From the NCBI RefSeq assembly GCF_051903065.1, contig NZ_CP178438.1: DNA of 64,000 nt. One strand, written 5' to 3'. Position numbers: made by a program. Source of the stretch: Escherichia coli (lineage in GTDB: Bacteria > Pseudomonadota > Gammaproteobacteria > Enterobacterales > Enterobacteriaceae). The stretch's first letter is position 1; every line of letters begins with the position of its first letter. Shown one piece after another: positions 45,001 to 64,000 of this stretch.

Positions 45001-48000
45001 CTTATTTATTTCAATAAATATATCGCCTAAAAACAACGCGGGGCAGGGAATGACTGCCCCATTTTTAATTTTTAAGTAGGGTGCGTGGTTGACTACTCGT
45101 TAGCAAATAATCAAATAGCTAAAGCATTCATCGTGTTGCCCGTATTCATACCCATGTGACTTTGACAACGGTACTCCTTAGAAACTCTCTTCGGACTGTT
45201 GCCGAAATGTTTGCGGAACGCATAAATAAAATAAGATGTACTGGCATAACCACATTGTTCGGCAATTTTATTGACTGAACCTTCTACGCGTATCAAATTT
45301 TTTGCGTGCTGCATTCTGGCATCTAATAGAATCTGTGAGAATGTCGTTTGCTCTTGCTTTAGTTTTTTCTTCAACAGGCTTTCACTGATGTACAGGCAGT
45401 CACAAATATCTTTCAGCTTCCATGGGTGCGCCAGCTTCATGTTGACAATATTTCTCACTTTCCCGGAAACGGATAGCACACCGTTAGTTAATAGTGTAAT
45501 GAAACCTTTGCATGCGGCAAATATAGACAGGCAAGAAAAAAGCAAAAGTTCTGAAAAATTATGATGATTGCGTTCTTCCGAGTTGAGATAAGCAATCATT
45601 TCATTAAGCAATCCAGTCGGTACATTTGAAGCACGTAAAAACTTCGCAGGAACAGGCACCGTCACTGTCTGGATGTTAGTGCATTGTAGATATTTTTTAA
45701 TGGTATTTTCATTAAATCCGATTTCTTTAAAATGCCGCTCATAAGGTTCAAAATGTGTACGAACAGCGTTATCTACCATCAGGATCTCGCCGTCAGAGAA
45801 GGCGTAATCTTTATCTAAAATGTTAGCGTTGAAAGCATGATGAATAAATATAACAGAACAAACGAGCGACATTTTATCTCCTTAAAACAATAAAGTTTTA
45901 TCGATACTTTTTTAACATTTCATATTTATAATTTGCTGTTTATTTTCAGTCTTGCAAACTATTGATAATGAAATGTGTAAGATCTCTTGCAATGCGACCC
46001 ATTTCTGAAATACCCAGCTGATCAATTGCCGAAAAAATGGCTATCAACGTAAGTGTCAGTAATAAGACAACCACAATTACAGACATGATTTCTTTATAGT
46101 TGTCTCTTTGTGTGATTTTATTTTTCACTGTGGTCGCATGCATTTCAAATATGTTTATTTAGCGGATAACGTTAAAAATCGTTAATCAGTATGCTTAATA
46201 TAACAGGCTGGAAAAAAGAGGAAATAGGACTGGTGCTTCAGTACTGAGCGGAGTTTCTTACAGCTGTAGGCAGAAGTTTAAATCTTATAGTATGTAGTTT
46301 AATTTAATCCATGTGAGCAAATTGCGCGATAATAGTCAATGAGGAATTCTTCTGCTGTGCGGATGACAGCAGAAGAAATGAGAAGAGGCATTAATTTGAT
46401 GGTTCTAATTCAACCGGAATACTTTTATAGCCAGGAATGCCACTTAATGGATCGTGGTTATCAAGTGTTAGCATGTGATTCGATTCTGGAAAATAGGTCA
46501 CCAGTGAGCGGTCAGCCATAGGGTAAATGACCACTTTTAATCTATCCATGCGGCGGTGATGCTGCCAACTTACTGATTTAGTGTATGATGGTGTTTTTGA
46601 GGTGCTCCAGTGGCTTCTGTTTCTATCAGCTGTCCCTCCTGTTCAGCTACTGACGGGGTGGTGCGTAACGGCAAAAGCACCGCCGGACATCAGCGCTATC
46701 TCTGCTCTCACTGCCGTAAAACATGGCAACTGCAGTTCACTTACACCGCTTCTCAACCCGGTACGCACCAGAAAATCATTGATATGGCCATGAATGGCGT
46801 TGGATGCCGGGCAACAGCCCGCATTATGGGCGTTGGCCTCAACACGATTTTACGTCACTTAAAAAACTCAGGCCGCAGTCGGTAACCTCGCGCATACAGC
46901 CGGGCAGTGACGTCATCGTCTGCGCGGAAATGGACGAACAGTGGGGCTATGTCGGGGCTAAATCGCGCCAGCGCTGGCTGTTTTACGCGTATGACAGGCT
47001 CCGGAAGACGGTTGTTGCGCACGTATTCGGTGAACGCACTATGGCGACGCTGGGGCGTCTTATGAGCCTGCTGTCACCCTTTGACGTGGTGATATGGATG
47101 ACGGATGGCTGGCCGCTGTATGAATCCCGCCTGAAGGGAAAGCTGCACGTAATCAGCAAGCGATATACGCAGCGAATTGAGCGGCATAACCTGAATCTGA
47201 GGCAGCACCTGGCACGGCTGGGACGGAAGTCGCTGTCGTTCTCAAAATCGGTGGAGCTGCATGACAAAGTCATCGGGCATTATCTGAACATAAAACACTA
47301 TCAATAAGTTGGAGTCATTACCCCATGCGGCGTGAGCTGCGCTTACCGTCTGGCGTAAGCGCAATAAGATTAACTCTTTCGCCGTTTTTTACACGGCAAA
47401 TTTTAGCTTGTTTAGCACTCATAAAGACCACATCTCGTTGACCGAATACCCCTCGATAGCGATCATCCATACCATAAATCGTCGTGTTGTACTGATCGTG
47501 GCTGCGTACTGTCGCCATGACCAGCTTACTGTTAAACGCTGAAGAGGGATCTTCTAACAGCCCTTTGCTGGTAATGAAATTAGCCTTACCTGACGGCGTC
47601 ATCCAGCGCCTTTCAGCAGCTGCATTTATCAGGTGAAAACCACCGGGATGACGGATGCGCTGGTTATAGTCGGCGAACTCTGGCAGCACAGCTTCAATGT
47701 CGTTGCGAATGCGATCATAATCTTCCACCAGATACTCCCAGGCTACCACGCTCTGGGGTAGTGCTGCCTGTGCGATTCCCGCGACCACTGCACACTCTGA
47801 TTTCAGCATTACACCGGCGGGTTTTAACACGCCACGCGAGGCATGAATCATCGACATTGAATCCTCAACGGTTACCGCCTGCGCACCGCTTTTTTGCATG
47901 TCAATCTCGCTACGTCCCAGAACCGGCAGAATATAGCTATGCCGTGCGGTCAGCAGATGAGAGCGGTTAAGCTTAGTGGCTACGTGTACCGCCAGATCTA

Positions 48001-63000: not shown

Positions 63001-64000
63001 TTGACCTCCCACATCCCCCCCGTGGTGATGCTAACCTTCCCGACGCCGGTTTCTCCATAACCGAGTGAACTTCCTCCGTTGCTGACAACAAGCCCCTGAT
63101 TACTGATATTCATTTCGCCATGGCCGTCATAACCAAGATTAGTTCCGAGATTAGTGATAACGGAGTTCTTATCCTTAACAGTAATGTTGCCTGTGCCTGT
63201 TTCTTTCATCCCCGCAGTGATAATTCCCGAATCTACTTTGCCTTCACTCGAGACATTAAGTTCACCGTCGCCAGCATCACCGATATAGATATAGCGGAAA
63301 GCTTCGCCCGTTCCGAGGAAATTCCAATGCCCTTTATCGGTCACGTTGACGACACCGTGGGAACCGTCCTGAACGCCCACCAATGAATATTCTTTGTTAT
63401 TAATTAGTCCATTATTGGAAATATTGACTGCGCCATTACCGAAGTATCCATTATAGAGTCTGCGTACCGTGATGACAGAGTCTTGATCCTGCACATTCAG
63501 GGTTCCGACACCGGTGGCATTGCCACCGATAATCGTATTTTCAGCCGTAATCAGCCCACCCTCGCGAATAGTCGCCTCCCCAGTTCCTTGATTACCAATT
63601 TGAAATTCAATTGAGGAATCATTATTTTTTATTAGCCACTCGCCACCCTTTTCAACGACAACCTTACCATTACTGTTCGCTTGATATCCTAAAATGGCGA
63701 CTATTGAACTCGTGACGTAACCCTTATCCGTAATATTTAATGAGCCCGTACCGTAACTCCCTATTTCGAATAATTCGGTCGTCAAAACCGAGTCCTCTCC
63801 CTCAACATTAACCGTCCCGACGCCTGCAGCTTGAGTACCTAATCTTAAATAGCCTCCATCGACGTGACCCTTCTGTTTAATATTCAGCGTCCCCGTTCCG
63901 GATTGACCCACATTTAAAGGCCTTGCATTATTTCCGCTATCATACAATCGCCAGGTGCGGTGATGCTGCCAACTTACTGATTTAGTGTATGATGGTGTTT

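Follow-up and report, generated by a model that had tools for sequence, protein, structure and literature searches.

Segments flanked by directly repeated IS1 copies, such as Tn9 and the r-determinant of R100 (NR1), are a standard substrate for RecA-dependent deletion and, through unequal exchange, for duplication. IS1 elements of the IS1A type from Escherichia coli and Shigella are 768 bp long, with terminal repeats of ~23 bp and two reading frames, insA and insB', linked by an A6C motif, and they generate a target duplication of 9 bp, occasionally 8-10 bp. IS1 also causes adjacent deletions, described classically in the gal region of E. coli K-12, in which one IS1 end stays in place and the loss starts exactly at the IS end and takes one copy of the target duplication. 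Deletions between direct, homologous IS copies have been followed in mutation-accumulation and evolution experiments with E. coli (PMC5009759; PMC11708052). The IS insertion rate was 3.5e-4 per genome per generation, recombination between IS copies was 4.5e-5 for all IS pairs together, and IS1 was among the most active elements (PMC5009759).

The locus studied here lies in a 64,000-nt stretch of E. coli DNA (the window). A sequence-only reading had proposed that two IS1 copies in direct orientation, both disrupting genes, bracket a 16.6-kb block in it. We found the IS1 left repeat twice, both times on the plus strand and with a 42/42 match between the copies; ydeP keeps 708 of its 759 codons beside one copy, the autotransporter gene lacks its 5' end beside the other, and the block between them (47323-63958) measures 16,636 bp. 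As in Tn9 and the R100 r-determinant, direct IS1 repeats surround a DNA segment, and recombinational excision or deletion and tandem amplification are to be expected of it in the same way. The locus differs from them in that the passenger is native and in its ancestral position, the two IS1 copies entered separately, and a duplication around the whole unit is lacking. Two independent IS1 insertions into the native chromosome of an IS1-rich clone very probably account for these 768-bp direct repeats 16,636 bp apart.

A complete IS1 interrupts ydeP

The coordinates of both IS1 copies and of the genes between and beside them are given in Table 1. The copy inside ydeP (IS1 no. 1) starts with GGTGATGCTGCC, finishes with ...GGAGTCATTACC and has the imperfect terminal repeats of ~23 bp that characterize IS1 (GGTGATGCTGCCAACTTACTGAT / GGTAATGACTCCAACTTATTGAT). 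Its ORFs match the domains Zn_ribbon_InsA, HTH_Tnp_IS1 and DDE_Tnp_IS1 (Pfam PF03811, PF12759 and PF03400; E-values 1e-21 to 2e-78). It has insA and insB' with the A6C motif for -1 frameshifting, and CCATGCGGC forms a perfect 9-bp direct duplication on either side. Length, repeats, reading frames, frameshift motif and duplication are all those of IS1A-type IS1, from which nothing of substance separates IS1 no. 1, and its homologous copies in related genomes bear the RefSeq name 'IS1-like element IS1A family transposase'.

Table 1. Features of the IS1-bracketed region (window positions).
Feature	Position	Strand	Source or remark
ydeP 3' fragment	46391-46554	-	last 51 codons + stop at 46391-46545, then duplication copy; outside the block
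Target duplication CCATGCGGC, left copy	46546-46554		last 9 bases of the ydeP 3' fragment
IS1 no. 1, complete, 768 bp	46555-47322	+	sequence; Pfam
IS1 no. 1 left inverted repeat	46555-46577		
IS1 no. 1 insA	46610-46885		
IS1 no. 1 insB' frame	46804-47307		
IS1 no. 1 A6C frameshift motif	46861-46867		
IS1 no. 1 right inverted repeat	47300-47322		
ydeP 5' part	47318-49447	-	708 native codons + one hybrid Gly codon + TAA stop within IS1 right end; PF00384 Molybdopterin
Target duplication CCATGCGGC, right copy	47323-47331		
Six-gene chaperone-usher fimbrial operon, complete	49781-56142	-	sister annotation transferred at 100% identity
ydeQ/FimH-like adhesin	49781-50695	-	
FimG-like minor subunit	50755-51258	-	
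FimF-like minor subunit	51271-51801	-	
Usher	51815-54466	-	883 aa
Chaperone	54508-55218	-	
Major subunit	55579-56142	-	
AraC-type HTH pseudogene remnant	56576-56845	-	
hipBA toxin-antitoxin module	57116-58704	-	hipA 57116-58438, hipB 58438-58704
ECSE_1600-family (yneO-like) autotransporter remnant	58915-63958	-	without 5' end
IS1 no. 2, first 42 bases	63959-64000	+	left inverted repeat + 19 further bases, cut by window edge; full 768 bp without target duplication inferred from sister genomes

In the sister strains ydeP is uninterrupted, with a length of 2280 nt in the sister genome compared; here the IS1 splits the gene after codon 708, with 2125 nt on its right and 155 nt, together with the duplicated 9 nt, on its left. 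Not one of the 5,426 complete E. coli genomes searched has the ydeP::IS1 junction. As an exact match, the 709-aa product of the truncated ydeP occurs in one public assembly, the draft GCA_036912935.1, in which a 16,854-bp contig is 100% identical to the block and ends 105 bp into IS1 on the ydeP side and 108 bp into IS1 on the autotransporter side, the pattern expected where a short-read assembler meets a multi-copy repeat at each end. IS copies often cause misassembly; given the perfect 9-bp target duplication and the same junction in this independent draft, the chance that the IS1 in ydeP is an assembly artefact is vanishingly small. The insertion in ydeP is thus real, recent and confined to this strain type. 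A literature search found nothing linking ydeP, IS1 and hipA.

A second, co-oriented IS1 at the window edge

The last 42 bases of the window are identical at 42/42 positions to the start of IS1 no. 1, are co-oriented with it and adjoin the truncated autotransporter gene. They belong to the only long direct repeat in the window (46553-46596 / 63957-64000; 44 nt, 100%). Its leading GC comes from a chance agreement between the flanks, and the element itself again begins with GGTGATGCTGCC. The 23-bp left inverted repeat of IS1 is present exactly twice in the window, both times on the plus strand, and 0 times in shuffled sequence. On the autotransporter side, the draft GCA_036912935.1, which shares the ydeP allele, extends the match to IS1 to 108/108 positions.

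The reading made from the window had taken the second element to be neither partial nor inverted, and the related genomes agree: three closed genomes of the same clone, identical to the window at 100% of positions 47323-64000, have at this junction a 768-bp IS1 that is full length and co-oriented. In 23CRST027, a 58-codon stub encoding an ESPR signal peptide comes next, and lsrK after it; the autotransporter IS1 of ECNB21-M121 is the same one, and its right junction does not differ. The 58-aa stub was matched in 24 contigs, all ending in or carrying IS1; GCA_036912935.1 is not among the 10 of 24 matches listed.

Were the 42 edge bases a solo IS1 end or a truncated IS1, they would provide no recombination substrate and the block would not be especially unstable. 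This reading draws on the small number of visible bases and on the adjacent deletion already made by the autotransporter IS1 (see below), which marks the site as rearrangement-prone. We regard it as highly unlikely, given that the full 768-bp IS1 is present in the three closed genomes, whose left junction is identical and whose flanks match at 100%, and that the contig of the draft with the ydeP::IS1 allele matches to 108 bp and breaks there as it would at a multi-copy repeat. The case that IS1 no. 2 is full length in the genome of the window, which by itself shows 42 bases, is thus strong but indirect. Past position 64000, we would expect 726 bp more of IS1 ending in ...GGAGTCATTACC, followed by AACCGCTTAGTGCCAGC..., the 58-codon ESPR stub (AACCGCTTAGTGCC...) and lsrK.

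Relatives of the strain and order of IS1 events

Over window positions 20000-44000, the sequence is 100.0% identical to that of strains 23CRST027, 23CRST031 and ECNB21-M121, and at most 99.3% identical to every other genome. Comparison with 23CRST027 gives 0 mismatches over the 16,678 bp of 47323-64000, and over 43001-64000 the sole difference is the IS1 in ydeP with its 9-bp duplication. Genomes of this clone have about 28-38 IS1 places each.

Whether IS1 no. 2 has a target duplication of its own could not be seen from the window, as had been pointed out, and the comparison with related strains settles the matter. In ECNB21-M121 the autotransporter IS1 is bounded by the 9-bp duplication AACCGCTTA, which is the ancestral state. 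The left flank in the window, as in 23CRST027, ends with ...CGCCAGGTGC; the 213 bp that separate this point from the IS1 left end in ECNB21-M121, including the left copy of AACCGCTTA, are absent from the window lineage, and the right junction is unchanged between the lineages. IS1 no. 2 therefore has no target duplication in the window lineage (as read in sister genomes) because the 213-bp deletion adjacent to it removed the left copy. The loss bears the signature of an IS1-mediated adjacent deletion: as in the gal region, one IS1 end is retained, and the missing DNA starts exactly at the IS end and includes one duplication copy. It differs from the gal deletions in being very short (213 bp) and in being inferred from strain comparison, not from experiment.

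Three steps produced the present arrangement. First, the autotransporter gene of yneO/ECSE_1600 type was interrupted near its 5' end, after codon 57, by an IS1 that made the duplication AACCGCTTA (seen in relatives). An IS1 adjacent deletion then took 213 bp, among them the left duplication copy (seen in relatives, with the left junction in the window). Finally, another IS1 entered ydeP by simple transposition, with the duplication CCATGCGGC and the removal of the last 51 codons (seen in the window).

The last step could instead have been a short-range hop from the adjoining autotransporter IS1, making the pair parent and daughter. IS transposition in E. coli favours nearby sites (PMC5009759), and IS1 no. 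1 is identical at 768/768 positions to the autotransporter IS1 of ECNB21-M121. The same 768/768 identity holds for a second, unrelated IS1 of ECNB21-M121, so identity cannot discriminate between donors; there are 2 differences in 768 positions between IS1 no. 1 and the autotransporter IS1 of 23CRST027, the closest relative, and the clone offers roughly 30 or more potential donors. We consider a short hop possible but doubtful, and favour two independent insertions. An attempt to name the donor of the ydeP IS1 by sequence identity failed: with two ECNB21-M121 copies equally identical to it and the 23CRST027 copy two positions off, the donor cannot be named.

In the 23CRST027 autotransporter IS1 (L001 20560-21327), the differences from IS1 no. 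1 are T vs G at position 444 (Ser vs Arg) and, within the frame of the DDE transposase, T vs G at position 558 (Cys vs Trp). The Ser-to-Arg change (AGT to AGG at IS1 position 444) distinguishes IS1 no. 1 from the copies of both 23CRST027 and MB19, and is found in other IS1 copies of the clone as well. Either gene conversion between IS1 elements or an error of assembly could lie behind the two variants of the 23CRST027 copy.

In MB19-type strains, the 5' region of the autotransporter gene has independently received an IS1, co-oriented with the one here (L005 3405-4172 in strain MB19; O157 reference coordinates L004 6395-6404), and this insertion appears to be common to many listed strains. The 5' 600 bp of the gene seem to be a recurrent IS1 target.

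The bracketed block

All genes of the block are on the minus strand. Its inventory agrees with what had been read from the sequence, namely a 3'-truncated ydeP, the whole fimbrial operon, hipBA and an autotransporter remnant. The autotransporter passenger is split at 62908 by a -1 frameshift (A5 here vs A6 in ECNB21-M121 and O157), yielding ORFs at 58915-62910 and 62877-63947; since independent draft assemblies show it too, this frameshift is probably real and no sequencing error.

With two direct IS1 copies around passenger DNA, the architecture resembles that of Tn9, and the whole IS1-block-IS1 unit could be taken for a composite transposon acquired or moved as one piece. The 9-bp duplication, however, surrounds just IS1 no. 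1, and the unit has unequal outer flanks, CCATGCGGC to the left and, as read in sister genomes, AACCGCTTA to the right, not the duplication expected of a unit that moved as one piece. In addition, the order ydeO-safA-ydeP-fimbrial operon-hipAB-autotransporter-lsrK is conserved as in O157 and the sister strains, and sister genomes carry the same block without IS1 no. 1. The IS1-block-IS1 unit was not seen in a second genomic context, and none of the 5,426 complete genomes has the ydeP::IS1 junction. A composite-transposon origin is exceedingly unlikely on this evidence, and we rejected it on the grounds of target duplications and synteny; the unit was built in place by two insertions. The block belongs to the native chromosome and was not imported as a composite transposon.

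A separate matter is what the 18.2-kb unit might do in future. It is very improbable that it acts as a Tn9-like composite transposon or an excisable circle that moves the fimbrial operon and hipBA onto plasmids, with hipBA as a stabilizing addiction module.

Recombination between the copies and stability of the block

A crossover between the two IS1 copies would delete the block together with one IS1, leaving ydeP-3'-IS1-signal-peptide stub-lsrK, and the outcome of an unequal sister exchange would be duplication or amplification of the block. The identity of the repeats is 42/42 in the window, 108/108 in the draft and 766-768/768 against the sister copies, the full second copy lying past the window. 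Two differences in 768 positions, as in the 23CRST027 copy, would not prevent recombination. Loss of the block by recombination between the copies is plausible from known IS biology. Both this locus and the experimental IS-flanked deletions (PMC5009759; PMC11708052) involve direct homologous IS copies; here it is the substrate that is observed, not the event. No deletion, duplication, amplification or circular product of the block was seen among the 5,426 complete genomes, and the ydeP-3'-IS1 junction was found in 0 complete genomes in any context.

The recombination rate cited above covers all IS pairs, so a single pair should recombine rarely; 'unstable', as the block had been called, then means occasional loss and not visible instability. 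Since each genome of the clone has about 28-38 IS1 places, there must be many pairs of this kind. No gene of the block is known to be essential in K-12, and deletion should thus be viable. Loss of hipBA might transiently penalize cells, to judge from general toxin-antitoxin biology, because the toxin outlives the antitoxin.

The arrangement is ordinary, already-known insertion-sequence biology in an IS1-rich clone. It records a three-step IS1 history within one clone (insertion, 213-bp adjacent deletion and a new strain-specific insertion), which has little import beyond strain bookkeeping, and it creates a potential 16.6-kb deletion or amplification substrate that spans the fimbrial operon and hipBA. 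For typing and assembly of the clone, it matters that short-read assemblies break at both IS1 copies. Persistence or acid-resistance work with the strain should take into account that ydeP is truncated and that hipBA could be lost.

Other rearrangements in the surrounding region

Compared with ECNB21-M121, the window lacks 2,347 bp at positions 44189/44190, a deletion that takes out ydeM and the 3' portion of ydeN (sulfatase and its maturase). There is no IS at the junction. 23CRST027 has the deletion too, and its annotation lists what is left as a partial sulfatase-like pseudogene. ECNB21-M121 has an extra IS1, absent from the window, at the place corresponding to window positions 43943-43951 (duplication TCATTTAAC), between yddA and ydeM. 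This IS1 is co-oriented with the autotransporter IS1 of that strain and 768/768 identical to the ydeP IS1.

In E. coli O121 strain 201805972 (L022), a truncated yneE (bestrophin family) is linked directly to the ydeP 3' flank by an IS1, which points to an inversion or rearrangement brought about by IS1. In the same strain, most of the fimbrial operon has given way to an IS2. Both changes set a precedent for remodelling of this region by IS elements. Elsewhere in the window, at ~6900-9500, annotation transferred from the sister genome shows that the interval from narU to an ompC-like porin gene contains espR1 (T3SS leucine-rich-repeat effector-like), another LRR gene and a pseudogene fragment.
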